Below are positions 1,310 to 60,170 of a stretch of DNA of 64,000 nucleotides, in pieces. A model generated the notes under the pieces. That model did not search any database and was not told where the DNA came from. It saw only the letters and a program-made list of their open reading frames with translations. The position numbers and the translations under genes were made by a program. The first letter of the stretch is position 1, and every line of letters begins with the position of its first letter. This stretch comes from a virus: IMG/VR virus record IMGVR_UViG_3300040959_000809; one strand, 5' to 3'.

Positions 1310-1620
1310 TCGTCACCAAAAAATGATTCGAGACCAATATTTTCGTCTGCCATTTTATAGACCATATCCTTGAGCTTGGGCATAGGTTTATCACCTATAG
1401 CCAGCATAAAGGCTTTATAGTCACCCTCATTTCTAAAGTTTACATAGAGTTTTTGCCATTGCTCTGGGAACTCGGGGTCCTGTGGCTTTGGCTTTACAGT
1501 TGGTTTGTATTCATCTTCCTCACCAAGAAACCTACCTAGAGTATTAGGTAAGTTCTCGTCAGAAACATAACCAACCATATCGTCGTACTCTTGCGACGTG
1601 TCGTGTTTATATTCCTTCAT
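1306..1620 (-). CDS. hypothetical protein, probable paralog of 830..1102
   Basis: LYVNFRNEGDYKAFMLAIGDK resembles TIKFKSREHREDFAKRMG of 830..1102. Confidence 0.6.
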   Translation of the reverse strand: MKEYKHDTSQEYDDMVGYVSDENLPNTLGRFLGEEDEYKPTVKPKPQDPEFPEQWQKLYVNFRNEGDYKAFMLAIGDKPMPKLKDMVYKMADENIGLESFFGDE

Positions 1621-1653
1621 TAATATACCTCATGTTTTGTTTTACACATGTAT

Positions 1654-3012: not shown

Positions 3013-3067
3013 AATATAGTTTCCTTTTTCACCTTATAGAATATACTATAACACGAATAAAAACAAA

Positions 3068-3073
3068 TGTCAA
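3068..3073 (-). promoter_or_regulatory. sigma70-type -35 box of an early promoter (GGTTGACATT family)
   Basis: aatgtcaacc on the + strand, with an AT-rich UP element and a -10-like box pointing at ORF 3012. Confidence 0.6.
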
Positions 3074-3103
3074 CCATTTTTTTACTTTTTTTTTACTTTT
3101 TTA

Positions 3104-3307
3104 TTAAAAGTGGTTGGTAATCATATCCAAACGATCCTGAGCAGCTGCCATTGCATCCAATTCCTTTTGGATGGTTTCAATGATATCGGAGTGCTCACCG
3201 ATACCGACCACCTTTTGCATATAGACTTCAATATTTGTTTTATGCAGTTCAATTTCTGCCTCGGCATGTAGCCGAATAGCTTTTAGCATACGTTCTCTCA
3301 ATTCCAT
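3104..3307 (-). CDS. conserved small marine myovirus protein
   Basis: 67 aa with RBS; NIEVYMQKVVGIGEHSDIIETIQKELD motif. Confidence 0.6.
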   Translation of the reverse strand: MELRERMLKAIRLHAEAEIELHKTNIEVYMQKVVGIGEHSDIIETIQKELDAMAAAQDRLDMITNHF

Positions 3308-8360: not shown

Positions 8361-9424
8361 TATGTAATATTCATAGCCTCTATATACAGATCATCGATTG
8401 TCTTTTTGACTTTATTTTTATCAACTGATGTATCTAGTGAATCAATATAGTTATGTAGGATTTCCTTAGTATCCTTAGTCTCGTCGAGTATTTCGTCAGC
8501 ACCTACGGATTCAAGATTTAATGCATCATCCACCGCTTTAACATCTGCGGCACCTGAATCAGCCAACCTACTCATAAACAGATCATATATGTAAGGGTTT
8601 GTTCTGTTTTTAACAATGACCTTGATATATGTATCATCTAGCATGGAGACATCCAACTGAGCAATATCGTCAACTGTCATGTCCGTGTCGTCATAATCCA
8701 ATTTATGGAACACACGATTTGGATTTATAACCCGTGTCACATCGCGTGTTTCGGTGTCAAAGACATGGAACCCACGTTTGCCTTGGTAATCAGACCAAGT
8801 CATTTCATATGGGGCACCTAGGTATTCAATATTTCTATACCGTGATGGATGGTGGAAGTGTCCAGAATAAACAGATTCAAAGTTACCGAATACACTCATA
8901 TCCAAACCATGAGTACAAACAGTACCTTTCATCATCTCAAAGCCCTGTACCTCTAAATGTCCCATCAGAACATTTGCATCACTCTTTGAAATAGCATCCA
9001 TACATTTGTCTACATTGTCACGAGTAATCCAGGGAACCATTAGAAACTTTGTAGATCCTAATTGTAGTTCCTCTGGCTCGTGTTCATATATTTTAAAGTT
9101 TTCATACTCACGAAGAAGCAAATTCATAGAATTTACCTCGTTCGTGTTTGTGTAGTAGGTCGTATGATTACCCACAAGAGCATGGTATTTAATACCACGT
9201 TTAGCCATTTGTTCAAAGAAGTATTGTTTACCTCGTTGTAGGCTCACATAATTAATATATTTACGGCGATCAAAAGTATCACCGAGATCAAATACGGTAT
9301 CAATACCATGCTCATCCAGATATGGGAAAAATACTTCCATAAAGAATTTTTCTTGGTGGTTCTGAAAGACTTTACTGTCTCCTCGAACACCAATATGCAT
9401 ATCTGTTACAATTGCAATTTTCAA
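8360..9424 (-). CDS. 47: recombination endonuclease nuclease subunit (T4 gp47, Mre11-like)
   Basis: TDMHIG, LGDTFD, GNH, GHLE and GHFH metallophosphoesterase motifs. Confidence 0.95.
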   Translation of the reverse strand: MKIAIVTDMHIGVRGDSKVFQNHQEKFFMEVFFPYLDEHGIDTVFDLGDTFDRRKYINYVSLQRGKQYFFEQMAKRGIKYHALVGNHTTYYTNTNEVNSMNLLLREYENFKIYEHEPEELQLGSTKFLMVPWITRDNVDKCMDAISKSDANVLMGHLEVQGFEMMKGTVCTHGLDMSVFGNFESVYSGHFHHPSRYRNIEYLGAPYEMTWSDYQGKRGFHVFDTETRDVTRVINPNRVFHKLDYDDTDMTVDDIAQLDVSMLDDTYIKVIVKNRTNPYIYDLFMSRLADSGAADVKAVDDALNLESVGADEILDETKDTKEILHNYIDSLDTSVDKNKVKKTIDDLYIEAMNIT

Positions 9425-36075: not shown

Positions 36076-36333
36076 ATGTCTATTCAGAAACTTATCGATC
36101 AAACTCACAGCTACTTTGTAGAAGCACAAGGTACAGACCTTGCTGATCTATATAAAGGTGATCTATCTGATTTCCAAGCAGTACAATGGATGATTAATTC
36201 GGATGACATTGATGATGCCGTCGCAAAAATCGATAATATGGATACGGAACCACGTGAGCAGATCATGTTGGCTATTGCGGATGAGTATGGTAATGGATAT
36301 GTAGAAACTGTAATAGGCTATGAGGTAGCATAA
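36076..36333 (+). CDS. hypothetical acidic early protein
   Basis: Promoter TTGACA at 36017; AAGGA RBS. Confidence 0.6.
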   Translation: MSIQKLIDQTHSYFVEAQGTDLADLYKGDLSDFQAVQWMINSDDIDDAVAKIDNMDTEPREQIMLAIADEYGNGYVETVIGYEVA

Positions 36334-36616: not shown

Positions 36617-36670
36617 GTCACATAATGATGTTATATATTGACTTTTGATGTATAACATCATAAATACTAT

Positions 36671-36980
36671 GTAATCGTTGATACGATTCAACGCATGGAC
36701 TGGACCGGGGGGCAATACCCCGCAGCTCCACCATAAACACACTGAGAACGTGCAAGCGTCAGTAAGTCTATAAAGGGTCGCAACCTTGAGCAACAGTGTG
36801 TTTTTGATGGGGCTGAACTAGGATCGACAGGTGTGTAGAGATGAGAGTAGATTACCGTGGTGGCTTACGACATTCGGCCAAACAAACTAAATGCAAACGA
36901 TAATGTTGCACCTTCAGGTTACGCACTAGCGGCATAAGCTGACGGGCTGGTCACTTGCCTCGGAACAGAAAAGTGACACT
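36671..36980 (+). ncRNA. ssrA: circularly permuted two-piece tmRNA (alphaproteobacterial type); outer ends approximate
   Basis: Acceptor piece ends CAGCTCCACCA at 36733. Coding piece starts GGGGCTGAACTAGGATCGAC at 36809, giving a G3.U70 pair. Tag ORF 36893-36937 reads ANDNVAPSGYALAA*. Confidence 0.92.
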
Positions 36981-36990
36981 TTATTCTAAT

Positions 36991-37020
36991 GACTCGTCAG
37001 TACTGACGGGTCTTTATTTT
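36991..37020 (+). terminator. intrinsic terminator after tmRNA
   Basis: GACTCGTCAG-TA-CTGACGGGTC followed by TTTATTTT. Confidence 0.7.
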
Positions 37021-37049
37021 TCTTAATACACACAAGGAGATTTTCAAGG

Positions 37050-37835
37050 ATGAAAAATCTATTTTTAACTACAGCAGCGATGGCTTTGATGACCTCAGCT
37101 GCCTTTGCCGCAGATGTCACTGGTGAAATTCAATTGGACTTTACACAAAACGCAGCTGATGATATTGTTGCCAACCAAACACTAGAACTTGGTGTTGATG
37201 CAATGGCAGGAAATGCCGGCATTGGATTTGCAATGAACGGAGATACTGTAGAGGTTGATTCGTGGCATGTGGGAATGTCAACAGGAGATATTGCCTTCTC
37301 ATTTGGTGATCAGGGTGACTTGCTAGGTGACTTTGGTGGAATCACAGAAAACGCAGGCGGGACAACTTTGGCCAATCCAGCTGATGATGGTGAAAGTCTA
37401 ATCGCAAGTGCATATGGCGCAAGCATTATGGTTGGTCTTACTGATATGACAGCTGATGTGACTGACGTAAAAAATGTACAAGCTACATATGGCATGGATG
37501 CAGCCGGGATTGACATCGGTGTAGGTTTGGACTATAACCTAGATTCAGAGGAATTTATCTACATGGGCTTTGGCGGAGCAACTCGTTCCATCGCAGGTAC
37601 TGAGGCTAGCATCGGAACTACTTTTACTTATGGTGCCGAAACCTTTGCTTATGAAACAGATGTAACTGTATTTGGTGTTACAGGTTTTGTCAACGGCGAT
37701 GAAAACGACAGCTTACAAAATGTAGGTGGTGGTTACTACACCAATGTACAAGGTTTGGATGTGTATGCTGAAACTGCATATAACCTTGATAGCGAAGAGT
37801 GGACCCCATCCACGGGTGTTGCGTTCTCGTTCTAA
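37050..37835 (+). CDS. outer-membrane porin (Rhodobacter-type beta-barrel)
   Basis: Signal peptide ending AAFA-A, acidic amphipathic beta strands, and C-terminal GVAFSF with a terminal Phe. Confidence 0.75.
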   Translation: MKNLFLTTAAMALMTSAAFAADVTGEIQLDFTQNAADDIVANQTLELGVDAMAGNAGIGFAMNGDTVEVDSWHVGMSTGDIAFSFGDQGDLLGDFGGITENAGGTTLANPADDGESLIASAYGASIMVGLTDMTADVTDVKNVQATYGMDAAGIDIGVGLDYNLDSEEFIYMGFGGATRSIAGTEASIGTTFTYGAETFAYETDVTVFGVTGFVNGDENDSLQNVGGGYYTNVQGLDVYAETAYNLDSEEWTPSTGVAFSF

Positions 37836-37850
37836 AGAATAAATACACAC

Positions 37851-37880
37851 ACAAGGTGGGCAGGATTCTTGCCCCCTTGT
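37851..37880 (+). terminator. hairpin after the porin gene
   Basis: ACAAGG-T-GGGCAGGA...CTTGCCC-CCTTGT inverted repeat. Confidence 0.5.
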
Positions 37881-37884
37881 ACCT

Positions 37885-37892
37885 TATAAATA
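37885..37892 (+). promoter_or_regulatory. T4-type late promoter TATAAATA upstream of heme oxygenase
   Basis: Exact TATAAATA about 63 bp before ATG 37956. Confidence 0.6.
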
Positions 37893-37955
37893 AGTTCAAA
37901 AGTTGCACGAGCGAACTTTGTAATTAACACTCACAATTTGGAGGAATTAGATTTT

Positions 37956-38573
37956 ATGGCAAACAACTTAAAAGAACTTACCTGGGAACATCACAAATCA
38001 GCAGAACGTACTGAATTTACTCAAATTTTGCTAGGTGGTGAAATTAGCCCAGAACTTTATCACAAATATCTTTGCAGCCAATTAATTTGTTATACTGCAC
38101 TTGAAGAGGCGGTGACATTGCCAACAGAATTTCAATCTGTATTCAGACAAACTGGATTAGAGGAAGATATTGCGGAATTAGAAAGCATTTATGGTATTGA
38201 ACCATGGGATGAACCTTTACCAGCGGTAATTGAATATGTTGAGCATATAGGTTATCTTGCGAAAAATAACGACAACAATGGTCTTTTGGCTCACCTATAT
38301 GTTCGCCATTTTGGTGATATGAGCGGTGGACAAATTATCAGAACCAAGGTTCCAGGCGATGGTACATTCTATGATTTTGATGACATTGATACATTAAAAT
38401 CTGGTATTAGAGAATTGTTGAATAATGATATGGCTGTAGAAGCTGGCATTTGTTTCCAATATGCTGAGCAAATGTTTGGTGAATTGCTGGATTGCACTCC
38501 ATATTATTTTAATACTGAATATGCAATGGCGGAAGGCTTACCATATGATGTCGCTGATGGTGAAGAAGAATAG
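37956..38573 (+). CDS. heme oxygenase (HemO/Ho1-like)
   Basis: LKELTWEHHKSAE (heme-ligand His), RQTGLEEDI, AHLYVRHFGDMSGGQII and FYDF; GGAGGA RBS. Confidence 0.9.
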   Translation: MANNLKELTWEHHKSAERTEFTQILLGGEISPELYHKYLCSQLICYTALEEAVTLPTEFQSVFRQTGLEEDIAELESIYGIEPWDEPLPAVIEYVEHIGYLAKNNDNNGLLAHLYVRHFGDMSGGQIIRTKVPGDGTFYDFDDIDTLKSGIRELLNNDMAVEAGICFQYAEQMFGELLDCTPYYFNTEYAMAEGLPYDVADGEEE

Positions 38574-38576
38574 CAT

Positions 38577-39254
38577 ATGGAAATAGTAAAAAAATTAAAT
38601 AAATTTACGGCCGACACAAAGACACTTTTTTCCAATAATATGGAAAGAACTATGCCCGATTATAGAGTCGAGCAATTCCCTGGATGGTCGGATCAGTTTT
38701 GGAAAAAGCCAGGATTGATTAGAAAATGTCATTTAAAAACAATAGATCTAATTGAAGAACGAAACCTTTGGCTTCTGCATATTAATATCTTTCCAGAGTT
38801 CGGGCTTGATTTGCCTATATTAGGATGTGATGTAGTTGCAGGGCCGAATAAAATTAGCGGTTCGTTCTTTGATTTCTCACCTATTATCAAACAACACCAT
38901 CCAATGATTAAGCACTTTGCAGAACAAACTGGTGGGGTGTCTTGGAAACGAGAAAGAAAATTGCCACCGTGGGCCACAAAAATCTTTTCAAACCATATGG
39001 TCGCTGCTGGTGCGGTTCGTAATGAAGAGGTGGATCAGTTCACACAGTTGACATATTCTCTTATGGAATACTATCTCTTACAGATGGAAACTCTTGCCGA
39101 GAATACTAAATTGGATACAAAGGCGGTCCAGAATAACTATTGCAAAAATCAGAAAAAGAATCCTAAGCTACACAGTTCAATTGCTGCAATGGGGATTCCA
39201 GAGCATAAGAAAGATTATTATGTAGATCGAATTCTTTTTGAAGAAATTGGTTGA
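38577..39254 (+). CDS. ferredoxin-dependent bilin reductase (PcyA/PcyX-like)
   Basis: RKCHL, LHINIFP, LPILGCDVVAG, FFDFSP, LPPWATKIFS and YCKNQKKNP; adjacent to heme oxygenase. Confidence 0.85.
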   Translation: MEIVKKLNKFTADTKTLFSNNMERTMPDYRVEQFPGWSDQFWKKPGLIRKCHLKTIDLIEERNLWLLHINIFPEFGLDLPILGCDVVAGPNKISGSFFDFSPIIKQHHPMIKHFAEQTGGVSWKRERKLPPWATKIFSNHMVAAGAVRNEEVDQFTQLTYSLMEYYLLQMETLAENTKLDTKAVQNNYCKNQKKNPKLHSSIAAMGIPEHKKDYYVDRILFEEIG

Positions 39255-39314
39255 CATTTCTTATAGTACGTGATATAGTAATAGTATTACCAATCAAATA
39301 GGAGATAGGTTTTT

Positions 39315-39551
39315 ATGGTCGTTACTATGACACCTGAAAAAATACATCATGCAATATCGACAATGGTTTCTCAAGGTGTTCCTTATATTGACGCGCTAGT
39401 GACATACGCAGAAAATAATGGACTTGAAATTGAAACTATTGCTGCTATAATAAAGAAATCCTCTATACTTAAGGAAAAAGTACGTTCAGAGGCAGTTCAG
39501 TTGAGAATGGTGAAAAAAGATGAAAATGACCTCACCGACATTTGCGAATGA
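39315..39551 (+). CDS. 33: late transcription coactivator (T4 gp33)
   Basis: YIDALVTYAENNGLEIE...ILKEKVRSEA; promoter TTGACA at 39251. Confidence 0.85.
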   Translation: MVVTMTPEKIHHAISTMVSQGVPYIDALVTYAENNGLEIETIAAIIKKSSILKEKVRSEAVQLRMVKKDENDLTDICE

Positions 39552-40122
39552 GGAATCATTCAGTGCTTATGTAAAATATCTTGCTTTTAAAAGACATTTT
39601 ACTACAGACTCGTATGATTATTTCAAATACAATGGAAAAGTTAGAGCTTCGATTGATTCGTTTCAGTCGAGAAATGATTCGTTTTTCTTTCTGAAACTGG
39701 CAAGAAAAGACGATTATGAAAATATAATTCTGGCTAATATGATTGAAAAGCCAGATATATGGGTACGTGATATACTGGAGCAGGAGGGACACAATCGCTA
39801 TATAAAATGGAAAAAAAGAATGGACTCGTTAGGATATATCTTCAAGAGTGATATAAATACTATGTTGGATGAATATGAAGATAATTTTGTAGTTCGTGAT
39901 GGGCAACACCCACATATAATGACTATGATGCTACAGAAAAAAATATCCTTAGAAACATTCACCATCATGACACACTTGGCAAATATTTTTCCTTATTGGG
40001 ACAAAAAAATTGTTGACAAAGTTGTGTCACGTGATATAATGAAAAAATCAAGGAAGTATAAACCTTTCTTGGATCTTGATTGGAATAGGTACAAGACATA
40101 TGTCAAAGATCAATTCCTTTAA
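39520..40122 (+). CDS. 59: helicase loader (T4 gp59)
   Basis: YLAFKRHFTTDSYDYFKYNGK...ISLETF...KYKPFL. Confidence 0.9.
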   Translation: MKMTSPTFANEESFSAYVKYLAFKRHFTTDSYDYFKYNGKVRASIDSFQSRNDSFFFLKLARKDDYENIILANMIEKPDIWVRDILEQEGHNRYIKWKKRMDSLGYIFKSDINTMLDEYEDNFVVRDGQHPHIMTMMLQKKISLETFTIMTHLANIFPYWDKKIVDKVVSRDIMKKSRKYKPFLDLDWNRYKTYVKDQFL

Positions 40123-40179
40123 TGAAGATATAAACCGCAATAAAATACTATATAACGCAAAATTAGGAGAAATAAAACC

Positions 40180-41109
40180 ATGACTATGGATTTCAACGCA
40201 CTAAAAAAGAACCGTTCTTCGTCACTAGACAAACTGAACGCTCAACTCGATAAAATCACCACAAAATCTTACTCCGACCCGAACGAGGGTAAATTCTGGA
40301 AACCGACCCGTGATAAGGCCGGTAACGGTTTTGCAATTATTCGTTTCCTTCCACCTCCTCAAGGTGAGGAAATGCCATTCGTACGTATCTGGGATCACGG
40401 TTTCCAAGGACCTAACGGTCAATGGTACATTGAGAACTCACTGACAACTCTTGGTCAGGATGATCCAGTCTCCGAGTACAATTCCAAATTATGGAACTCT
40501 GGCCTGGAATCAGACAAGGACCTTGCACGTAAACAAAAACGTCGACTGAAATATGTGGCAAACATTTATGTGGTCAAGGATTCTGCTAACCCAGAAAACG
40601 ATGGTAAAGTATTCCTTTATCAGTTTGGTAAAAAAATCTTTGATAAACTCAATGATCTAATGAACCCATCATTTGAGGATGAGAAACCAGTCAACCCATT
40701 TGATCTATGGGAAGGTGCTAACTTCCGTCTGAAAATTCGTCAGTTCGAAGGTTATCCTAACTATGACAAATCAGAGTTTGATGGACCGACATCATTATTT
40801 GATGATGATGACAAACTAGAGGCTACTTGGAAATCTCAGCATTCTCTCCAGGAATTACTAGATCCTAAAAACTTCAAATCATATTCTGAACTCAAAACAA
40901 AATTGTACCGAGTTCTTGATCTTTCAGAAGATGCAGGACCAACTGCATCTAGTCGGATGGAAGAGTCCACTACGGACAATGATTTGGACTTGAGCAATAT
41001 GGGTAACACACAGGCTTCAGCTGAAGCCGCACCGGCACCCGTGAATATGTCCATGAACGATGACGATGATGACGATTTGTCAATCTTCAAAGAACTTGCA
41101 CGCTCATAA
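40180..41109 (+). CDS. 32: ssDNA-binding protein (T4 gp32)
   Basis: FWKPTRDKAGNGFAIIRFLP...WYIENSLTT...GKKIFDK...PFDLWEGANF; acidic tail. Confidence 0.97.
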   Translation: MTMDFNALKKNRSSSLDKLNAQLDKITTKSYSDPNEGKFWKPTRDKAGNGFAIIRFLPPPQGEEMPFVRIWDHGFQGPNGQWYIENSLTTLGQDDPVSEYNSKLWNSGLESDKDLARKQKRRLKYVANIYVVKDSANPENDGKVFLYQFGKKIFDKLNDLMNPSFEDEKPVNPFDLWEGANFRLKIRQFEGYPNYDKSEFDGPTSLFDDDDKLEATWKSQHSLQELLDPKNFKSYSELKTKLYRVLDLSEDAGPTASSRMEESTTDNDLDLSNMGNTQASAEAAPAPVNMSMNDDDDDDLSIFKELARS

Positions 41110-41122
41110 TTAAGTAATCACC

Positions 41123-41157
41123 TAAGAGGGCTCAAATAGTTGGGCCCTCTTATTTTT
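41123..41157 (+). terminator. intrinsic terminator after gp32
   Basis: TAAGAGGGCTC...GGGCCCTCTTA followed by TTTTT. Confidence 0.75.
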
Positions 41158-41170
41158 ATTGGAGAAAAAC

Positions 41171-41452
41171 ATGTCAACAGTATCAGAAGATATTTTAGAT
41201 TTTGATTTTGGATTTACTGCAGTAGATGCTGATGAGCTTGAGGTTGTACGAACTGCAACTGAAAAATCAGAGGAACTATCTGCTCAGGTAGAATCCACAA
41301 GCGCAAAAGCAGAACTTGTTTATAATGCAATTATTCCACTTCTTAATAATCTAAAGGCAAATCCTGAAAAGGATTATATTTACTGGCCTAATCGCCACGA
41401 AAAGATTGATGCTTTTGCCGACAAGCTTTATGAAATTATGAATGGGAGTTAA
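41171..41452 (+). CDS. conserved hypothetical protein
   Basis: FDFGFTAVDADEL...NLKANPEKDYIYWPNR; GGAG RBS. Confidence 0.65.
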   Translation: MSTVSEDILDFDFGFTAVDADELEVVRTATEKSEELSAQVESTSAKAELVYNAIIPLLNNLKANPEKDYIYWPNRHEKIDAFADKLYEIMNGS

Positions 41453-41454
41453 CT

Positions 41455-42516
41455 ATGAGTCTACTAGACAAACTTGTCAAAAACAGCACAATTAAAATGA
41501 CGGCTCAACTTACTGAGTCGACGGTTTTTGGTAAAAAAGAAATGGCAACAACACCGGTCCCTATGGTGAATGTTGCCCTATCAGGTGATCCTGATGGTGG
41601 TTTAAGCCCAGGTTTGCTGGTGCTTGCTGGACCATCAAAACATTTTAAATCAGCATTTGCACTCTTAACTGCATCAGCATACATGAAAAAATATGACGAT
41701 GCGGTTTTGTTATTTTATGATTCAGAATTTGGAACACCTCAAGCCTATTTTGAAACATTTGGTATTGATATGGACCGTGTCGTGCATACACCAATTACTA
41801 ATGTTGAGGAACTTAAATTTGATATTAGTAATCAATTAGATCAGATTGAGAAAAAAGATCATGTAATTGTTATTATTGATTCTGTGGGTAACCTTGCCTC
41901 TAAGAAAGAGGTTGAGGATGCAATGAACGAAAAGAGTGTCGCCGATATGTCTCGGGCTAAGTCACTCAAATCATTGTTCCGTATTGTTACACCACATCTT
42001 AATCTTAAGGATATTCCACTCATTGCCGTAAACCACACATACCAAGAGATTGGCTTGTTCCCTAAGGCAATCGTTTCAGGCGGCACAGGGATTTATTACT
42101 CAGCAGATGCCATTTGGATTATTGGTCGCCAACAGGACAAGGTTGGTACGGAAATTCAAGGTTATCATTTTGTAATTAATATTGAAAAATCTCGCCATGT
42201 AAAAGAGAAATCCAAGATCCCAATTTCAGTATCCTGGGAAGGTGGTATCGTCAAATGGTCAGGTCTTATGGATGTGGCCGAAAAAGGTGGATACCTTCGT
42301 AAACCAAAAGTTGGTTGGTATGAAGCGGTGGATCCCTCCACTGGTGAAATTATATCAGACAAACTAATGAGAGCAAAAGATGTAAATAATAATGAAGAGT
42401 TCTGGCAGATGATGTTTGCAAAAACTGATTTTAAAGAATATATTAGAAAATTATTTACAATAGGTGCCTCGGGCAGTATCATGGGTGAAGATGATATTGT
42501 TGAGGTTGTTGAATAA
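41455..42516 (+). CDS. uvsX: RecA-like recombinase UvsX
   Basis: AGPSKHFKS, FYDSEFG, IIDSVG, VADMSRAK and SGGTG. Confidence 0.95.
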   Translation: MSLLDKLVKNSTIKMTAQLTESTVFGKKEMATTPVPMVNVALSGDPDGGLSPGLLVLAGPSKHFKSAFALLTASAYMKKYDDAVLLFYDSEFGTPQAYFETFGIDMDRVVHTPITNVEELKFDISNQLDQIEKKDHVIVIIDSVGNLASKKEVEDAMNEKSVADMSRAKSLKSLFRIVTPHLNLKDIPLIAVNHTYQEIGLFPKAIVSGGTGIYYSADAIWIIGRQQDKVGTEIQGYHFVINIEKSRHVKEKSKIPISVSWEGGIVKWSGLMDVAEKGGYLRKPKVGWYEAVDPSTGEIISDKLMRAKDVNNNEEFWQMMFAKTDFKEYIRKLFTIGASGSIMGEDDIVEVVE

Positions 42517-42569
42517 ACCTGTTGACTTTTCCTATAATTAATGATATTATAGGTACTATAAAACAAACC

Positions 42570-42591
42570 GGTGGTGGCTTTTGTCACCACC
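42570..42591 (+). other. hairpin in the gp41 leader
   Basis: GGTGGTGGC-TTTT-GTCACCACC, between a TTGACT...TATTAT promoter and the gp41 start. Confidence 0.5.
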
Positions 42592-42616
42592 TATCTTTTT
42601 ATAATATAGGGACAAC

Positions 42617-44056
42617 ATGCTAGAAAAGTCTATTTTATCAAATTTAATCTTCAACGAGGAATATTACCGAAAGGTTTATCCTTATGTAAAGGGCGAGTAT
42701 TTTGACGACTCGAACCATGAGCGTATTTTTTCTACCTTTAGTGAATATGTAGAAAATTACAAGGAGGCTCCTTCGATTGAGGCTCTTAAATTATCACTTG
42801 ACAAACGTAAGGATCTCAACGAAGACTCATATAAAAATGTAATGTCTGCGGTTGATGACTTTCGTGTTGATGAGGAAACAAATACTGAGTTCCTTATTGA
42901 TGAAACAGAAAAATTCTGTCAAGATAAAGATCTCTATAATTCAATCCGCAAGGCTATTCTTATTCTGGATGGTGAGGATAAGCAAAACGATAAGGGATCC
43001 ATTCCTAAAATCTTATCGGATTCTCTAGGTATTACATTTGACCAAAGTGTGGGTCATGATTTTCTTGAGGATTATGAAGGACGATACGAATATTATCACA
43101 AAAAAGAAGAGCGGCTGCCATTTGATATTGATCTTTTAAACAAGGTTACCAAGGGTGGCTTACCTCGTAAATCAATGACAGTTCTGTTGGCAACAACCGG
43201 TGGTGGTAAATCTTTGGTAAAATGTCACATGGCTGCAAATTATTTGATGTACGGTAAGAATGTCTTATATATAACCATGGAGCTTGCTGAGGAAGAGGTT
43301 GGTCGTCGAATTGATGCCAACATTATGGATGTTACTCTGGATGAGGTTTCAATTACACCACGTGATGTTTTTGAAAAACGAATGAACAGATACAGATCCA
43401 AGACTCCTGGTAAACTCATTGTCAAGGAATATCCAACTGGTTCTGCTCACGTAGGACATTTCCGACATCTATTAAACGAATTGGAAATGAAAAAAGGCTT
43501 TAAGCCGGATGTGGTCTTTGTTGACTATATTAACATCTGCGCGTCTGCACGGGTCAAAGGTGCGGCCGCAGCAAACTCTTACACACTTGTCAAATCTATT
43601 GCGGAGGAAATTCGTGGTCTGGCTATGGAATTTAATTGTGCCGTTGTTACTAGTTCTCAGTTTAATAGGGACGGTTACGGCAACTCTGATGTTGATCTCA
43701 CCAACACCTCTGAGTCTATGGGTATTACTCACACTGCTGATTGTATCCTTGGACTTATAACGTCGGAAGACCTAGACAGTCTAGGCCAGTTGATGTTCAA
43801 ACAACTTAAAAATCGTTGGGGCGATTTAGGATATTATCGTAGATTCCTTGTAGGCATTGAACGTGCCAAAATGAAAATCTATGATCTTGAGGAATCAGCC
43901 CAACAAAACGTACAAAATACTGATGGTAATAATCAATCGGCATCAAACAATGATACCCCTTCGTTTGATAAGACCTCATTTGGTCAGGTTGTTACCATGA
44001 ACAGTAGAGGCAAAAGTCGTAAAAATGTATTCGAGGACATGGAAGGATTCAAATAA
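42617..44056 (+). CDS. 41: replicative DnaB-like helicase (T4 gp41)
   Basis: LATTGGGKS, YITMEL, KEYPT, VDYINI, SSQFNR and KQLKNR. Confidence 0.95.
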   Translation: MLEKSILSNLIFNEEYYRKVYPYVKGEYFDDSNHERIFSTFSEYVENYKEAPSIEALKLSLDKRKDLNEDSYKNVMSAVDDFRVDEETNTEFLIDETEKFCQDKDLYNSIRKAILILDGEDKQNDKGSIPKILSDSLGITFDQSVGHDFLEDYEGRYEYYHKKEERLPFDIDLLNKVTKGGLPRKSMTVLLATTGGGKSLVKCHMAANYLMYGKNVLYITMELAEEEVGRRIDANIMDVTLDEVSITPRDVFEKRMNRYRSKTPGKLIVKEYPTGSAHVGHFRHLLNELEMKKGFKPDVVFVDYINICASARVKGAAAANSYTLVKSIAEEIRGLAMEFNCAVVTSSQFNRDGYGNSDVDLTNTSESMGITHTADCILGLITSEDLDSLGQLMFKQLKNRWGDLGYYRRFLVGIERAKMKIYDLEESAQQNVQNTDGNNQSASNNDTPSFDKTSFGQVVTMNSRGKSRKNVFEDMEGFK

Positions 44057-44260
44057 ATGAAATACGAAATAGCATTATCACGGACCGGGGTATACGGAAT
44101 TTTGGAGAACACATCTGGTACTTTTATAAATATGTCAAACACCAAAAAAAGTACCATAGAGTCAGTCTGTGATAATTTAAACTGGGGCACTGGGTTTCAA
44201 GGACATACCCCCAATTTTATTGCTAACTTTTCTCCTTTGGTAAGAACAAAAAGAGAATGA
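44057..44260 (+). CDS. hypothetical protein
   Basis: 67 aa coupled to gp41; contains a late promoter. Confidence 0.5.
   Translation: MKYEIALSRTGVYGILENTSGTFINMSNTKKSTIESVCDNLNWGTGFQGHTPNFIANFSPLVRTKRE
44125..44132 (+). promoter_or_regulatory. T4-type late promoter TATAAATA
   Basis: Exact motif upstream of 44265. Confidence 0.6.
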
Positions 44261-44264
44261 AAAA

Positions 44265-45707
44265 ATGCCTCGTAATTTTAGAAACTATTTAAATGAAGCT
44301 TCTATATTAAAACCTGATTATGTAGAAGGGCATAAATTTGCCTGGAACGGTAAAGGTGTAAAGGAATTTGAAACCGCCGGTTATAAGCGCAATAATATAT
44401 TTACTGTAGTTACTGGTTCAGAAGGTGCTGTACTCATTGGAAGCCAAGATGCTGAGAATGAAAAATACCTACAAGGACCTGACGGAAAGGTATGGCACTT
44501 TAAAGGTGGTCTAAGTTTTAAGGCATCTTCTTTTACCCATGTTAAGGAATCTGGTGGGACACCCAGTGGCGCCGAATGGGAAAACCTTATTGTATTTGCC
44601 TATAATAATCTTAAAGGTACTGCTACAGATGAGGAAACAAAGGAAGTTGCTCTCAAATATTGGGAGCGTTATGGTAATATTTCGGATGAAATTGCTAAAA
44701 ACTTTGATACCAATCTTAAGGCAAAGCAGTTAGTACAAACAGGGCGTGGTTTGGGTAATGTCAAACTTGGAAAGTTTTGGAAAGCAGCTGGTGCGACAAA
44801 CAAGACACCAAAAACTGATATCGCATCATCTAATTTTGTGGAAAAGATTTCACTTAAAAAAGGTGGTGGATCTCAGCTCATTTCAGCAGAGAAAAAAGAA
44901 GCACTTGCAATCGTCAATGCTGCCCTATACGAAATGGGTGGTAACGCACCATTTGCCAAAAAGTTAACTAAGGCTATTGAAGATAAAATGACCAGACTTG
45001 TTACAACTGAGGCGGTCACAACCCTACAGAAACGCTCAATGATGGGTGATAAGGACGCTGGTGTGATTGATTATCAGAAAAAGGATAATGATCATAAGGA
45101 ATTGTCTGCAATGCTCAAGGAGGCCATTAGAGGGGCATCCGAAAGCAATAACTTATTCGCTCGACATATTGTACTAGAGGCAGCCACTGGTAATAATAAA
45201 TTTGGTGGTGCCAATTCAAAGGCAGCCGCAAATGTTTTAGGAAAATTTGATATTAGAACATTTGAGGTGGTTGTACAACCCATTTCATCTATTGATGATC
45301 CTATTATTATAGAGTATGCACAAAAGGTACGGCCATATGTTGCATTTAAAAAAGGTTCAGCGGGTTCTGCTGCTTATTCGGCAATGCGGATGGGTTTATC
45401 CGAAGGCTATACATTCCAAAAACTAGTCACCGAAGAACTTTCAAACATTCAAGGTTTCTATCTTACAGAGGATATTCTAAACGAAGGTCCTATGGGTATG
45501 CTTAGACGTGCTGGCACATTTGCCAAACGTGCAGGTGCCGCAGCTAAAAAAGCATTGGATGCAGCAGTTAAAAAGATCATTTTAAAATTAAAAAAGGTAT
45601 TTGCAGCCATTGCCAAAAAAGGTAAAAACATGATGGCAGCCCTTATGAAGTTCTTAGGGGTTGAGGTAAGTACTGCATCAGGAATTCCAGCAGAGGTAGG
45701 TCTATAA
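44265..45707 (+). CDS. putative head-packaged protein with a possible PD-(D/E)xK nuclease core and a cationic C-tail
   Basis: Leader MPRNFRNYLNE-A; TPKTDI...KISLKK; internal LVTE, YLTE and ILNE sites. Confidence 0.6.
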   Translation: MPRNFRNYLNEASILKPDYVEGHKFAWNGKGVKEFETAGYKRNNIFTVVTGSEGAVLIGSQDAENEKYLQGPDGKVWHFKGGLSFKASSFTHVKESGGTPSGAEWENLIVFAYNNLKGTATDEETKEVALKYWERYGNISDEIAKNFDTNLKAKQLVQTGRGLGNVKLGKFWKAAGATNKTPKTDIASSNFVEKISLKKGGGSQLISAEKKEALAIVNAALYEMGGNAPFAKKLTKAIEDKMTRLVTTEAVTTLQKRSMMGDKDAGVIDYQKKDNDHKELSAMLKEAIRGASESNNLFARHIVLEAATGNNKFGGANSKAAANVLGKFDIRTFEVVVQPISSIDDPIIIEYAQKVRPYVAFKKGSAGSAAYSAMRMGLSEGYTFQKLVTEELSNIQGFYLTEDILNEGPMGMLRRAGTFAKRAGAAAKKALDAAVKKIILKLKKVFAAIAKKGKNMMAALMKFLGVEVSTASGIPAEVGL

Positions 45708-46960
45708 TGAAAAGATTTAAAAACTATATTGCAGAGGAGGTCCTTACAGAGGATAAGAATTTGCATATGACGCACCTTGAGGATGCGGTCCTTGATGGGG
45801 GTGTGGTTGGTACTCGGAATGTTATTAACTATCTTCGTGCATTGAGAGACATGTTAGGTGGCAACACCAAGGCACCAGTAAATGTCTCTGTAAAATGGGA
45901 TGGGGCACCGGCAATTTTTGCTGGGAAAGATCCATCCGATGGCAAATTCTTTATTGCCAAAAAAGGTGTTTTTAATAAGAATCCCAAAATATATAAAACA
46001 GAAGCTGAAATTGACAATGATATATCAGGTGACCTTGCGTCAAAGTTTAAGGTTGCTTTAAAAGAGTTTAGTAAGCTCGGCATTGAAGGAGTGGTACAGG
46101 GTGATTTCCTATATACGAATGATGATTTACAAACGACGGCTATTGATGGAGAATCGTATATTACTTTCCATCCTAATACGATTGTTTACGCGGTACCAAC
46201 AAAAAGCAAACTTGCAAAAACAATTTCAGGATCCTCGATCGGCGTGGTCTTCCATACAACATACCGAGGAGATTCATTTGAAACAATGTCAGCAAGTTTT
46301 GGAAAGGAGATTGTACCTTCTCTCAAAAAAGTCAAATCGGTCTGGGCGGTAGATGCAGTATTTGAAGATAAGTCGGGCAATGCCACATTTACAGCTGCAG
46401 AGACAAAAGCATTAAATTCTATTCTAACCAAGGTAGGCACACTGTTCAGAACAATTAAAAAGGAAACCCTAAACGGTCTTTCAAAGGCAAATAATGAGGA
46501 ACTTAATACACGCGTAAATGTATATGTAAATCAAAAGGTCCGAGCTGGAGAACGTATTGGAAACCCTAAACAGTTTGTGGCTGGTCTCACAAAATACATC
46601 AATGACTATTACGGCAAAGAGGCAGATAAAAAGAAAACCCAGCGCGGTAAAGACACACAGACCGCAAAGCGTGACTCGGCTCTAGCCTATTTTGCAAACA
46701 ATAATAAAAAAGAAATAGAACGCTTATTTGAAATGTATAACCTATTAGTTGATGCTAAACTTATGGTTATTTCAAAATTAAACCATGTCGATGGTCTACA
46801 AACATTTCTTAAAACCAATAAAGGTTTTGAGGTTACTGGACAGGAAGGCTTTGTCGCCATTGATCATATGGGTAAAAATTCACTTAAACTTGTAGATAGA
46901 CTACAATTTAGTAAGGCGAACTTTAGTACAGAATATATTAAAGGCTGGGAGAAAAAGTAA
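45707..46960 (+). CDS. putative head-packaged ligase-fold covalent nucleotidyltransferase
   Basis: Leader MKRFKNYIAE-EVLTE; SVKWDGAP (motif I KxDG), VQGDF, QEGFV (motif IV) and LKLV (motif V). Confidence 0.65.
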   Translation: MKRFKNYIAEEVLTEDKNLHMTHLEDAVLDGGVVGTRNVINYLRALRDMLGGNTKAPVNVSVKWDGAPAIFAGKDPSDGKFFIAKKGVFNKNPKIYKTEAEIDNDISGDLASKFKVALKEFSKLGIEGVVQGDFLYTNDDLQTTAIDGESYITFHPNTIVYAVPTKSKLAKTISGSSIGVVFHTTYRGDSFETMSASFGKEIVPSLKKVKSVWAVDAVFEDKSGNATFTAAETKALNSILTKVGTLFRTIKKETLNGLSKANNEELNTRVNVYVNQKVRAGERIGNPKQFVAGLTKYINDYYGKEADKKKTQRGKDTQTAKRDSALAYFANNNKKEIERLFEMYNLLVDAKLMVISKLNHVDGLQTFLKTNKGFEVTGQEGFVAIDHMGKNSLKLVDRLQFSKANFSTEYIKGWEKK

Positions 46961-47190
46961 TGGCTTGGGTAGCAGTACCAGGATCTAATGGAATTTGGGA
47001 ATATGATAATGCGGCCAGCACAGCTGATGCTGATACATATGATGATGCAAATGGTACTGTTACTGGAGGAATTAGATCATTTACACCTCCGGGCGGTTCT
47101 GCTCAATTCACCTATATCAAGACAAGAAAAGTAGGTGAGACAATCGTTCGCGGAGAACTCAATAAAAACTATTATGACGGCAAAATTTAA
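46960..47190 (+). CDS. small hypothetical, likely virion-associated protein
   Basis: 76 aa, coupled, in the late region. Confidence 0.55.
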   Translation: MAWVAVPGSNGIWEYDNAASTADADTYDDANGTVTGGIRSFTPPGGSAQFTYIKTRKVGETIVRGELNKNYYDGKI

Positions 47191-47206: not shown

Positions 47207-48514
47207 ATGGCACAATTTAACAAAGATACAGGTGAATTTCTCAATAATAATAAAACACTATATGAAGTTGTTATGGTTGCTGGCCAAGCCGGGCCCTCAA
47301 CATATGTTAATACAGGCAATCTAAACACATCTTCTGATTCTTTTGGCAGAATGAGAGTCTCAGAACCACTTACTTTGTTTGATAGTAGTCATAGATACGC
47401 CGACAATGGACTTTTTTCAGAGAGCATAACAGGAACGGCATCATCAACATTTAACGGTGATGCAGGACTTATTGACTTAGATGTTGGTTCAAGTTCCGGT
47501 GATGAAATTCTCAGAGAAACCAATAAGACATTTGCATATCAGCCCGGCAAAAGTCTATTGATTCTTTCAAGTTTTATGCTTGCTGCAGCAAAAACTAATC
47601 TAAGACAGCGAGTTGGTTATTTTGGTTCTGAAAATGGTATCTTCTTAGAACAAGACGACAGTAATATATTAGTGGTATTGCGAAGTAAAGTAACTGGTAG
47701 TGTAGTTGACACAAAAATTGCAAAGGCAAACTGGAACGTTGACTCGTTAGATGGTACAGGCCCAAGTGGAGTGACTTTAGATTTGACTAAGGTTCAACTT
47801 ATGTGGTTGGACGTTGAGTGGCTTGGTGTTGGTAGTGTGCGTTTTGGTTTTGTGGTCAATGGACAGTTTATTCCATGTCATGTATTCCATCATGCAAATT
47901 TAATTGATTCCACATACATGACAACTGCATCTCTACCATTAAGACAAGAACTTACAAATACTGGTGCAACTTCTGGTGCAAGTCAGGCAAAACAAATTTG
48001 TAGCACTGTTATTAGTGAAGGTGGATATGAACTAAGAGGTAGACAACACGCCATTGGAACTCCAATTACCAGTGCATATCAATTGGCCGATGCCGGAACA
48101 TATTATCCTGTAGTTTCAATTAGACTGAAATCTGCAAGACAAGATGCAATTGTTATTTTGACTGCATTGTCTCTATTGGGGGTTGGTAATGGTGTAAACT
48201 TCTCATGGAAAATTGTTGCAGGCGGAACAGTGACAACAGCTTCTTGGACAAGTGCTGGTTCCGATTCTTCAGTCGAATACACCTTATCTGGAACTGCGCA
48301 TGATGGCGGTGGTAGAGTTCTTGCACAGGGGTATTTGAATTCCTCTAATCAAGGTTCGCCCACAATGGATATTCTAAAAGAGGCACTATTCAAGTTTCAG
48401 TTAGAGAGAAATTCATTTGCTGATGTTATGGAACCACTCTCGTTTTTGGTTGCTCCGGCAACTGATGATGAAGATATTTTTGCCTCGCTGGATTGGGAAG
48501 AGGTTACACGATAA
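47207..48514 (+). CDS. beta-rich putative virion structural protein (lectin-like)
   Basis: DSFGRMRVSEPLTLFDS...YQPGKS...RVGYF...WLGVG; G/S/T-rich. Confidence 0.6.
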   Translation: MAQFNKDTGEFLNNNKTLYEVVMVAGQAGPSTYVNTGNLNTSSDSFGRMRVSEPLTLFDSSHRYADNGLFSESITGTASSTFNGDAGLIDLDVGSSSGDEILRETNKTFAYQPGKSLLILSSFMLAAAKTNLRQRVGYFGSENGIFLEQDDSNILVVLRSKVTGSVVDTKIAKANWNVDSLDGTGPSGVTLDLTKVQLMWLDVEWLGVGSVRFGFVVNGQFIPCHVFHHANLIDSTYMTTASLPLRQELTNTGATSGASQAKQICSTVISEGGYELRGRQHAIGTPITSAYQLADAGTYYPVVSIRLKSARQDAIVILTALSLLGVGNGVNFSWKIVAGGTVTTASWTSAGSDSSVEYTLSGTAHDGGGRVLAQGYLNSSNQGSPTMDILKEALFKFQLERNSFADVMEPLSFLVAPATDDEDIFASLDWEEVTR

Positions 48515-52890: not shown

Positions 52891-52898
52891 TATAAATA
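52891..52898 (+). promoter_or_regulatory. T4-type late promoter TATAAATA
   Basis: Exact motif 34 bp upstream of 52933. Confidence 0.7.
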
Positions 52899-58344: not shown

Positions 58345-58352
58345 TATAAATA
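58345..58352 (+). promoter_or_regulatory. T4-type late promoter TATAAATA
   Basis: Exact motif 39 bp upstream of 58392. Confidence 0.7.
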
Positions 58353-58391
58353 TCAAAAATAACCACATTAAATTTTTAAGGATCTAATAAA

Positions 58392-60170
58392 ATGGCTTTT
58401 ACAGACAGAATTAAACAGTTAATGTCGTCTCATCTCGAGGCGGAACTAATGGAAGGTCTGAAACACGACCGTTATATGCGTGCTCACGGTAAAAAAGCTA
58501 AAGGCACCGCAACATGGATGTTTACCACCAAAAAAGATGGTGAAGTAAACTACGATAACGATAAGGAAGTTTTCCAATCCGGTCCATCTATGAAACTTGC
58601 AGATGCTGCCAAAAAAGCAATGGATGCTCTTAAATCAAAAACAATTTATGTAATGGAAGCTAAATTAGATCCAGTTGGCAAAGAAGATGATGATGTGGAC
58701 AATGACGGTGATGTAGATAAATCCGATAAGTATCTTAAAAAGCGCCGGGCCGCAATCAAAAAGGCTATTAATACAAAACCAGCAATGAAAGAGGCAGCTA
58801 AAAAGCAAAAAGCAAAACTACTGCCCGTCAAAGGTTCTGTAGATGATGCAAATGATGTGGCACAAAAGGCAACTGGCGAATCTGTTAATGAAGCGGCAAC
58901 ACCTCAAATGATGAAAGCCGCAAAAGAACTTGAAATGTACGCAAAGAAACACGGTGGGATTGATAAAACAGACTTTATGAAAGCCTCAAAGATGTTGGCA
59001 TCCGGTAAAGCCGGAACAAACCTTGTTAAATTTGTAGACGGACTTGACACAGATCCTCGTGAAAAGGTTATTACAGTTATGGGAACCCACATGGGTAATA
59101 AAACTGTTGGAAAAATGTTTGGTGTTAACATCCGTGAAGAAGTAGAATTAGACGAAGATCGTAGAACGGAACTTAGTCATCAATCAATGATGTTTACTCA
59201 TGCAATGAAACAAGCTGAATTTAAAAAGAAAGATCCGAGACTCGCAAAACAGCATGATATGGCTGGCAAGTTGCATGCTAAAGCGGCAGATATGCACGCT
59301 GATAACCATCCAGATGCAAAAAAGCATTCAGATAAAGCAAATAAAGCATCAAAGCTATTAGGCGAAGAAGTAGAACTTGATGAAACTTTATCACCATCTG
59401 AAAAGAAACTTGTCAATCAAATGTATGATAAGAAAGGTAACCTGACACCACTTGGTAAAAAGGTTATGAACCACGGTAAAAAGCCTGGTGATAACATCCG
59501 TGAGGAAACTGAACAGCTTGATGAATCAACTCAAATGATGGAAAATCTAGCTGATGCGATTGATAATACAGATTTGGCTAAACTCACAGTAGAAGAGTTA
59601 TCTGAAATCGAAGAAGGTATTATTAAGGCGCTAGGTGTTGCCGCCAAAAAGACTGTAGGTGGTGTCGCTAAGGGTGTAGGTGCTGTCGCTAAGGGTGTTG
59701 GTAAGGCAGCTAAATCCGCAGTCATTAATAAACAAGGTAATATCCGTGGTACACAAGCGGCTAAAACTGACGCACAGACTAACAAGGCTAATAAAATTGC
59801 TGATAAATTGCAACGAAATAAAGATGCGGCCGATAGATTAAAAGCGGCTCAGGACAGAATTAAATCTCTTTCCTCTAAGCCTAAGAAACCATTAGCGGCA
59901 AGTTATAATGAGGACCTAAACGAAATCGGAAGTAACTTTGAAACAAAACCGAATGAAAAGAAACTTGCTGACCTAGGCCGTAAAATGATGGATATGGGTC
60001 AAAAGGAAAAGAATGATACTCTTTCAAATGCATATGCCAGACTTGGTGACGCGTTGACAAGATATGGTACCACATTTGGTGCCAGAAATATAAAAGATTT
60101 GGAAAAGAAAACTGGCATGAAACAAGCCATTATTATGGATCTTATGAAAAGAGCTGCGAAGCATAAGTAA
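58392..60170 (+). CDS. putative head-core/internal polyprotein
   Basis: K/A/D/E-rich modules separated by ELME, YVME, SVNE, IREEVELDE, GEEVELDE, IREETEQLDE, EIEE and DLNE. Confidence 0.65.
   Translation: MAFTDRIKQLMSSHLEAELMEGLKHDRYMRAHGKKAKGTATWMFTTKKDGEVNYDNDKEVFQSGPSMKLADAAKKAMDALKSKTIYVMEAKLDPVGKEDDDVDNDGDVDKSDKYLKKRRAAIKKAINTKPAMKEAAKKQKAKLLPVKGSVDDANDVAQKATGESVNEAATPQMMKAAKELEMYAKKHGGIDKTDFMKASKMLASGKAGTNLVKFVDGLDTDPREKVITVMGTHMGNKTVGKMFGVNIREEVELDEDRRTELSHQSMMFTHAMKQAEFKKKDPRLAKQHDMAGKLHAKAADMHADNHPDAKKHSDKANKASKLLGEEVELDETLSPSEKKLVNQMYDKKGNLTPLGKKVMNHGKKPGDNIREETEQLDESTQMMENLADAIDNTDLAKLTVEELSEIEEGIIKALGVAAKKTVGGVAKGVGAVAKGVGKAAKSAVINKQGNIRGTQAAKTDAQTNKANKIADKLQRNKDAADRLKAAQDRIKSLSSKPKKPLAASYNEDLNEIGSNFETKPNEKKLADLGRKMMDMGQKEKNDTLSNAYARLGDALTRYGTTFGARNIKDLEKKTGMKQAIIMDLMKRAAKHK

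Follow-up and report, generated by a model that had tools for sequence, protein, structure and literature searches.

Is the protein encoded at 58392-60170 (plus strand) of IMG/VR virus record IMGVR_UViG_3300040959_000809 one protein, or several small ones made as a single chain? The window analysed here, the whole 64,000 nt of that stretch, comes from an uncultured T4-like phage of the marine cyanophage type. It encodes UvsX and a gp41-type helicase, has a G+C content of ~38% and carries a structural protein (47207-48514) that is 58-59% identical to its counterparts in S-RIM12 and S-RIM8, two myoviruses of Synechococcus. The open reading frame (ORF) specifies 592 amino acids (65 kDa, isoelectric point (pI) 9.4, 16% Lys). 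An earlier note, made from the sequence, had read it as a string of unrelated basic blocks parted by recurring acidic spacers, released as peptides inside the capsid and exchanged between relatives at the spacers. We find that the exchange takes place, and that the gene probably encodes a precursor polyprotein of capsid-internal proteins in a T4-like cyanophage.

Translation confirmed the 592-aa frame and the three long spacers, IREEVELDE at residues 247-255 (59130-59156), GEEVELDE at 324-331 (59361-59384) and IREETEQLDE at 369-378 (59496-59525), together with the short motifs ELME (18-21), YVME (86-89), SVNE (164-167), EIEE (405-408) and DLNE (508-511). The gp21 protease of T4 cleaves after Glu in L/I-x-E (PMC9026906). 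The long spacers conform to such sites, as had been proposed, but YVME and SVNE are V-x-E. Two sites are found in each long spacer, [IL]-[RG]-E followed by E-[VT]-E-(Q)-L-D-E, with an acidic 6-7-mer between them; the DNA of spacer 2 is 86% identical to that of spacer 1, and the differing bases are synonymous. Virtual cutting at [LI]xE, plus V-x-E at E89 and E167 (both backed by homologues), splits the chain into a leader of 21 aa, eight modules (M1-M8, Table 1) that range from 27 to 103 aa, and acidic 3-7-mers. The modules are mutually unrelated (best pair M5/M8, E 0.009), and seven are basic or near neutral (pI 8.8-10.3). Where about eight or nine unrelated basic blocks were first described, there are eight unrelated modules, one of which, the 27-mer M6, is acidic.

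The relatives of the protein show where these modules begin and end. Databases contain more than 2,500 at E ≤ 0.001, of which 1,156 are about as long as the protein and 1,441 are shorter; in most, the shared part amounts to just 7-40% of the query and is 60-90% identical. Colinear orthologues retain the N-terminal 167 and the C-terminal 214 residues; between them whole blocks differ, with acidic spacers at the junctions. Of 177 BLAST alignments to non-colinear relatives, 31 stop exactly at residue 255; starts fall at 161-172 or pile up at 321-325, by spacer 2. For a test of the boundaries, five modules were located in 240 database relatives through their conserved cores, and all distinct stretches of 14 residues ahead of them were collected as contexts. 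[LIVM]-x-E stood directly before the module start in 121 of 137 distinct contexts, against a background of 3-13%; for M3, M4 and M5 pooled the figure was 63 of 64, with many different P3 and P2 residues. P3 was L, I, V or M, and P2 was D, N, S, I, K, H, E or others.

The same modules also occur in stand-alone genes behind short leaders. M5 follows MRTFKTFVSE in a 50-aa gene (P0181), M3 follows MPKTYKNIIE (P0122), and M2, the commonest module with 89 occurrences, follows leaders ending in SFKKYLTE (P0197) and RFKQYISE (P0199), and is found in short genes behind others such as MEYLKSFKKYLTE. The M1 of the target is preceded in P0115 and P0158 by the canonical 10-aa leaders MQSFKKHIDE and MRSFKKFVIE. 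In all of these proteins, leader ends fill the place ahead of a module that internal spacers fill elsewhere, which would most simply reflect a common processing function. Given this equivalence and the invariance of L19 and E21, the conserved 21-aa N-terminus of the target is probably a leader variant; its residues Met1, F3, I7, L10, L19 and E21 are unchanged in 12 aligned relatives.

Module order is not fixed. M3 precedes M2 in P0131, M5 precedes M3 in P0123, and reversed order is also seen in P0049. Across the homologues, modules vary in presence and order while the spacer boundaries stay fixed, as the earlier note had predicted; the family is shuffled, not colinear. Exchange is visible between close relatives too. 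A contig from ENA (L071) is 97-98% identical to the window over 7.4 kb, minus exactly 366 nt, which span residues 250-371 and cover M4 and M5 with the spacer ahead of each. The two alignments on either side share 22 nt, the repeat GGTGxTAACATCCGTGARGAA; the window has two copies of it at a distance of 366 nt, and such linker DNA is repeated both within the gene and across genes. Within a bacterial assembly of 5.1 Mb (G001), a phage contig of 19 kb matches window positions 36670-47106 at 97% identity. It carries the counterpart (L076, G001:C88:1-8700, 1321-3258, minus strand) of a sister gene of the window that uses the same module pool as the 58392 gene. The product has 645 aa against 769 aa in the window, with EVQLDE and M5 in place of 166 aa and flanks that are ~99% identical. 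M5 thus lies in the target gene of one phage and in the neighbouring polyprotein of a sibling. The organism of this assembly may be the host, or the phage contig may be a contaminant. M4 recurs as an exact 76-aa unit flanked by cut sites (cluster I76) in at least 12 proteins that differ otherwise, and is missing from P0003-P0011. The clustering of segments by single linkage merged many pieces (cluster ‘A’) and was used only for M4 and for the C-terminal clusters. Module exchange at the spacers is demonstrated by the indel, the swap and the changes of order; release of the pieces, the other half of the original proposal, is something we infer and is consistent with indirect tests.

Several of these tests concern the protease and its substrates. 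Strict [LI]xE, counted against composition, occurs 10 times in the 592-aa protein, where 4.3 are expected, and 10 or more were reached in 0.5% of 5000 shuffles. In S-RIM12 and in the genomes G002 and G005, two proteins known as substrates of gp21, namely gp21 itself and gp22, show a similar enrichment (z 2.9-4.4), and the portal and sheath proteins of the same three show none. T4-like cyanophages, S-RIM12 included, are the closest cultured phages, and a head maturation protease is annotated in them. Peptidase_S77 (PF03420) was found in three of five related large records, namely both that are at least 90% complete and one that is 67% complete; the records lacking it are 20-67% complete. As an argument, a family-wide enrichment of [LI]xE (1.75-fold) was dropped, the mirror motif E-x-[LI] being enriched 1.8-fold. 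Because the motif is short and its mirror equally enriched, we rely on boundary positions rather than on counts.

The setting of the gene would also fit packaging. Six or seven genes upstream in the same late locus (between 55242 and 58087) start with M-x-x-F-K-x-[YFH]-[LIV]-x-E, and the locus contains leader-bearing enzymes, an HD hydrolase and a cytidylyltransferase. The capsid-targeting leader of T4 has 10-19 aa, with positions 4 and 7 serving targeting and positions 8 and 10 ([LI]-x-E) serving processing (PMC9026906). In the T4 sequences, the internal proteins (IPs) IPII and IPIII begin MKTYQEFIAE and IPI has a 19-aa propeptide, MKTFKEF...ITE, so that the leaders end in the L/I-x-E manner (MKTYQEFIAE, KLE, ...ITE). 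In T4 IPIII, an Asp at position 10 blocks the cut. The starts in the locus match these, MKRFKNYIAE here against MKTYQEFIAE in T4 and NFKEF against TFKEF of IPI, and therefore fit the T4 capsid-targeting sequence at the key positions. In three relatives (P0012, P0060 and P0072) a cytidylyltransferase is fused to the modules of the target in a single chain, and a further related chain (P0112) has a Zeta-toxin-like PF06414 domain. NMNAT/cytidylyltransferase-like proteins, the class fused in this way, have been detected by mass spectrometry in virions of the cyanophages S-SCSM1, S-CBWM1, S-SZBM1 and S-CREM2, although according to the authors carry-over into the virion preparations is possible (PMC9602691, PMC10665884).

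Loading of the 58392 product into the capsid and its cleavage there would, on balance, explain these findings best as a whole. In the mechanism we propose, the gene would be transcribed late from its own TATAAATA box, a promoter read in the sequence and presumed active. Guided by its 21-aa leader, the basic chain of 65 kDa would enter the prohead's scaffolding core, much as T4 proteins do by way of their capsid-targeting sequence, a step suggested by that analogy and by the canonical 10-aa leader before the same first module in relatives. A prohead protease of the gp21 type (Peptidase S77), presumably encoded elsewhere in the genome, would cut after the Glu of [LIVM]-x-E, taking off the leader and acting at both ends of each acidic spacer and at the other joints, at sites that are present in the protein. 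This would free some seven proteins that are basic or near neutral and, at 4.5-10.6 kDa, comparable in size to T4 IPI*/IPII*, together with an acidic 27-mer and acidic peptides such as EVELDE. The basic products would keep to the packaged DNA and probably reach the host together with it. The joints also act as recombination handles, close phages differing by whole linker-bounded cassettes.

A number of observations weigh against this account. The distinct contexts counted in the boundary test are not all independent by descent, and E-x-[LI] is about as enriched in the family as [LI]xE (1.8-fold vs 1.75-fold). The joints at E89 and E167 carry Val at P3, some relatives have no canonical site at the M7/M8 joint, and the P1' residues (E, D, L, T and K) are more varied than the Ala found at four T4 IP sites. 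The leader departs from the canonical 10-mer, with F at position 3 and its closing L-x-E at residue 21. Among GenBank phages (50,697 records), tblastn with the whole protein and three sub-regions gave no match; neither did megablast with 20 kb of the window, and the gene is absent from the cultured T4-like cyanophages searched. With no homologue found in cultured or GenBank phages, published virion proteomes are uninformative on the protein.

In a rival reading that we consider unlikely, the protein is modular and stays uncleaved. Its small helical domains would work together as one chain, with the acidic stretches as flexible linkers; it could be a late protein that binds DNA or resembles a scaffold, whether packaged or not, and hydrophobic-x-Glu would be a linker or helix-capping habit and a recombination footprint instead of a protease site. 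The shortness of the motif and the enrichment of its mirror image agree with such a protein, as does the departure of the N-terminus from the canonical leader; many EEVELDE spacers are homologous by descent, and repeated DNA can explain the cassette indels with no protease involved. Against this, five unrelated modules obey one boundary rule behind very different upstream sequence, in which only the hydrophobic P3 and the P1 Glu are kept. Stand-alone genes have at the same place the end of a T4-like leader, which does not serve as a linker, and the long spacers hold two sites around a 6-7-mer, like T4 IPII (FIAE...KLE).

Less probable still is that the product is disposable filler of the prohead core, of the type of T4 gp22, gp67 and gp68, loaded and cut, with pieces that mostly exit the head and have no role after assembly, the modules mattering for core assembly or head size only. 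The Lys/Ala/Glu-rich, helical composition would suit a core protein, the [LI]xE enrichment has the same size as that of gp22, and T4 core proteins are cut to several fragments that leave the head (PMC9026906). A complete 221-kb relative (G002) also has a leader-bearing protein in the gp67/gp68 slot. This protein (L068, G002:C1:206000-216000, minus strand, 4778-5986) has 402 aa, starts MKSFKQKLAE, lies between gp20 and gp21, and contains 7 [LI]xE vs 2.2 expected. The target gene, however, is not part of the head-gene cluster but stands among genes for leader-bearing enzymes; no gp20-gp23 homologues or other head genes were found in the 64-kb window. Relatives possess their own gp22. The modules are conserved and found as separate genes, M3 with a leaderless paralogue, which points to functions at the level of the module, and their fast gain and loss among 97-98%-identical phages is more typical of accessory cargo. 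Finally, a cytoplasmic late protein cut by another protease if at all, or a chance fusion of small proteins with no functional meaning, would fit modules that have no recognised fold or family, yet is highly improbable for an architecture conserved in more than 2,500 database proteins, set among late, leader-bearing genes and bounded by a motif that equals the cutting rule of the only protease that T4-like phages are known to share.

The features of the locus are collected in Table 1. The start at 58392 is preferred to Met20 (58449), which public automatic gene calls use (P0002, 573 aa) with loss of the conserved 21-aa leader, because the promoter, the Shine-Dalgarno-like sequence and the invariant leader residues all favour 58392; an in-frame TAA at 58377-58379 ends the frame upstream. 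The TATAAATA box and the Shine-Dalgarno-like sequence together predict late expression of the gene.

Table 1. Positions of the gene, its proposed parts and associated signals in the window; the last column gives, for five modules, the motif at the module start and its frequency among distinct contexts
Feature	Positions	Strand	Remarks	Motif at start
T4-type late promoter box TATAAATA	58345-58352	+	40 nt 5' of ATG; sequence-level	
Shine-Dalgarno-like AAGGA	58378-58382	+	9 nt before ATG	
Whole ORF	58392-60170	+	translation of window	
Leader, 21 aa, MAFTDRIKQLMSSHLEAELME, ends L-M-E	58392-58454	+	proposed capsid-targeting propeptide	
M1, residues 22-89	58455-58658	+	pI 9.6; core HDRYMRAHGKK; ends V-M-E; E89 invariant	[LIV]xE, 12/13
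M2, residues 90-167	58659-58892	+	KLDPVGKEDDDVDNDGDVDKSD acidic loop, then basic helix KYLKKRRAAIKKAI	[LIVM]xE, 46/60
M3, residues 168-249	58893-59138	+	predicted small helical domain; begins AATPQMMKAAKELE; predicted local distance difference test score (pLDDT) 74-88 over 168-248	[LIVM]xE directly before AATP, 24/24
Linker repeat copy 1 (GGxxxxxxxxxxGGTGxTAACATCCGTGARGAA)	59109-59141	+	82% identical to copy 2	
Spacer 1 EVELDE	59139-59156	+	between I-R-E and L-D-E; pLDDT <50 over 249-258	
M4, residues 256-325	59157-59366	+	DRRTELSHQSMMFTHAMK...; His/Lys-rich helical hairpin	L-x-E, 9/9
Spacer 2 EVELDE	59367-59384	+	between L-G-E and L-D-E sites	
M5, residues 332-371	59385-59504	+	TLSPSEKKLVNQMYDKKGNLTPLGKKVM...	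[LIV]xE, 30/31
Linker repeat copy 2	59475-59507	+	start-to-start spacing 366 nt; bounds the L071 indel	
Spacer 3 ETEQLDE	59505-59525	+	between I-R-E and L-D-E; pLDDT <50 over 360-447	
M6, residues 379-405, plus I-E-E 406-408	59526-59615	+	acidic; net charge -6	
M7, residues 409-511	59616-59924	+	pI 10.3; Gly/Ala/Lys-rich AKGVG repeat, then long helix	
M8, residues 512-592	59925-60167	+	pI 9.9; predicted helical C-terminal domain; pLDDT 76-84 over 520-590	
Sister polyprotein gene, 769 aa	52933-55242	+	cytidylyltransferase-like enzyme and module train; own TATAAATA at 52891	
TATAAATA boxes mapped	13846, 30077, 35732, 37885, 44125, 52891, 58345		6/7 at 34-46 nt, matching strand	

The window holds eight copies of TATAAATA, a total not beyond chance (6.5 expected). 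Six stand 34-46 nt 5' of an ORF start on the correct strand, and boxes precede both polyprotein genes; the box at 44125 lies ~130 nt ahead of the ORF at 44265. The seven boxes in Table 1 make up a late-promoter map of the window.

Within the chain, M7 and M8 form a conserved C-terminal end in many family members, and the cluster corresponding to this end (cluster C) is C-terminal in P0014, P0019, P0025, P0081, P0093, P0095, P0099, P0103 and P0115. I406, E407 and E408 are invariant in 12 relatives. The stretch that follows I-E-E (59616-59730, residues 409-446), GIIKALGVAAKKTVGGVAKGVGAVAKGVGKAAK, is Gly/Ala/Lys-rich, arises from 21-24-nt tandem repeats (D1) and resembles a cationic amphipathic peptide. 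There is a weak likeness between M5 and M8 at (S/N)EKKL...(M/L)...K (over 30 aa); they have the DNA repeats D3 and D11 in common and may be distant paralogues. A leaderless 85-aa ORF at 36076-36333 (plus strand) is a paralogue of M3, with 28% identity over 57 aa, a D-T-[DE]-P-R-E core and a pairwise E of 9e-9; the M3 domain would thus be made as a free protein as well. Around the structural gene shared with S-RIM12, synteny comparison found no equivalent locus in that phage. In the cultured Synechococcus phage SynMITS9220M01 (MT408532.1), an annotated cytidylyltransferase (6713-7939) starts MKNFFQFLSE, a T4-like capsid-targeting leader, and the following gene (7951-9057) has 9 [LI]xE vs 4.9 expected; a cultured system for the leader may exist in this phage.

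Pfam gave no family for the whole protein at E ≤ 0.01, and chance-level matches only for five single modules at E ≤ 10; residues 33-186 match phrog_4359 and phrog_38880, both PHROG families of unknown function. The Asp-rich loop DDVDNDGDVDKSD is present at residues 100-112, and its pattern in M2, D-x-D-x-D-G-x-V-x-x-x-D, fits the canonical spacing of the 12-residue Asp-rich loop in the helix-loop-helix of an EF-hand. No EF-hand was found by Pfam in the whole protein or in residues 88-134, even at E ≤ 10; the EF-hand likeness noted at first is one of loop pattern. One relative (P0121) has a precomputed PF00036 match, and some weak BFVD matches carry EF-hand names. An AlphaFold2 model of the whole chain, built from a 12-row alignment, was poor overall (mean pLDDT 52), with only M3 and M8 confident, besides a moderate helical hairpin. 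The spacers lie in stretches with pLDDT <50, between this hairpin and the confident helical modules at 168-248 and 520-590. VIA-align against 48,161 PDB chains gave Z ≤ 5.2 and generic helices, Foldseek against BFVD nothing at E ≤ 0.001, and the ESM Atlas unnamed viral clusters only, below 0.8. Searches with this whole-chain model give no evidence of new folds, and no known fold or family was found for any module in the Pfam, PDB, BFVD and ESM Atlas comparisons.

If the gene does encode a packaged precursor, abundant marine cyanophages would package many small proteins as one protease-separable chain, re-assorted between genes and near-identical genomes, and a large class of unannotated, lysine-rich ‘hypothetical’ ORFs in ocean viromes would be explained. 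The [LIVM]-x-E joints together with the M-x-x-F-K-x-aromatic-[LIV]-x-E leader would offer a sequence rule for virion cargo in T4-like cyanophages, and yield candidate factors of host takeover or anti-defence, small proteins whose ends are defined and which could be expressed singly. More tentatively, these genes could be cases of a ‘cargo train’, in which a pool of dozens of modules bounded by the protease motif is built into polyprotein genes and the linker DNA serves as recombination handle. Siblings would then re-compose their injected proteins in very short evolutionary time, with one leader and one promoter for many effectors. Were the freed modules host-takeover or anti-defence factors, this would be combinatorial effector delivery, which is not known to have been described for any phage. 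A literature search on the capsid-targeting sequence in cyanophages and on DUF5824 found no description of such an architecture.

For proteins injected along with phage DNA, the textbook example is the set of T4 internal proteins, each made from a gene of its own. IPI, IPII, IPIII and Alt carry a capsid-targeting sequence, are processed by gp21 and are ejected together with the DNA. Their genes are late and encode a short N-terminal leader that closes with [LI]-x-Glu, as is proposed here, and the T4 IPs share with the neighbours in the locus an aromatic residue at positions 4 and 7, I/L/V at 8 and Glu at 10. They too are a set that is hypervariable between close relatives; the products predicted here are small, basic and of IPI*/IPII* size, and IPII has a second site shortly behind the first, reminiscent of the spacers. 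They differ in having one protein per gene, against about eight unrelated modules in one frame with double-site acidic spacers. Beyond the logic of the leader, of which the target has a 21-aa variant, there is no sequence similarity, and the present protein is known from its sequence.

Other precursors are cut by the prohead protease at several Glu-ending sites, as proposed here, among them T4 gp22, gp67 and gp68 and head or ejection proteins of phiKZ and SPN3US (PMC9026906, PMC10052503). Unlike the target, these are single conserved proteins, trimmed or degraded and encoded in the head-gene cluster, and not trains that can be reordered; the target gene is neither a conserved core gene nor located in a head-gene cluster beside gp20/gp21/gp23. 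Polyvalent proteins likewise carry many unrelated domains per chain in combinatorial arrangement, and co-delivery with DNA and proteolytic separation have been proposed for them (Iyer et al. 2017, PMC5512222). The target resembles them in joining several unrelated domains (eight modules) in a chain of late context, with a late promoter. Their hallmarks are MuF, zincin-like MPTase and LPD domains, none of which appeared in the Pfam search of the target, and they are thought to process themselves, whereas in the target a prohead protease acting at short motifs would separate modules of 27-103 aa. The polyproteins of RNA viruses offer an analogy only: there too one ORF is cut by a viral protease at short motifs at the joints, but the products are the replication and structural core, whereas here they would be accessory virion cargo of a double-stranded DNA phage. 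Compared with the T4 IPs, the core proteins and the polyvalent proteins, what sets the 58392 gene apart is the combination of many small, reorderable modules that also occur independently in one frame, acidic spacers with two sites each, separation that would fall to the prohead protease and linker DNA that serves as a recombination handle.

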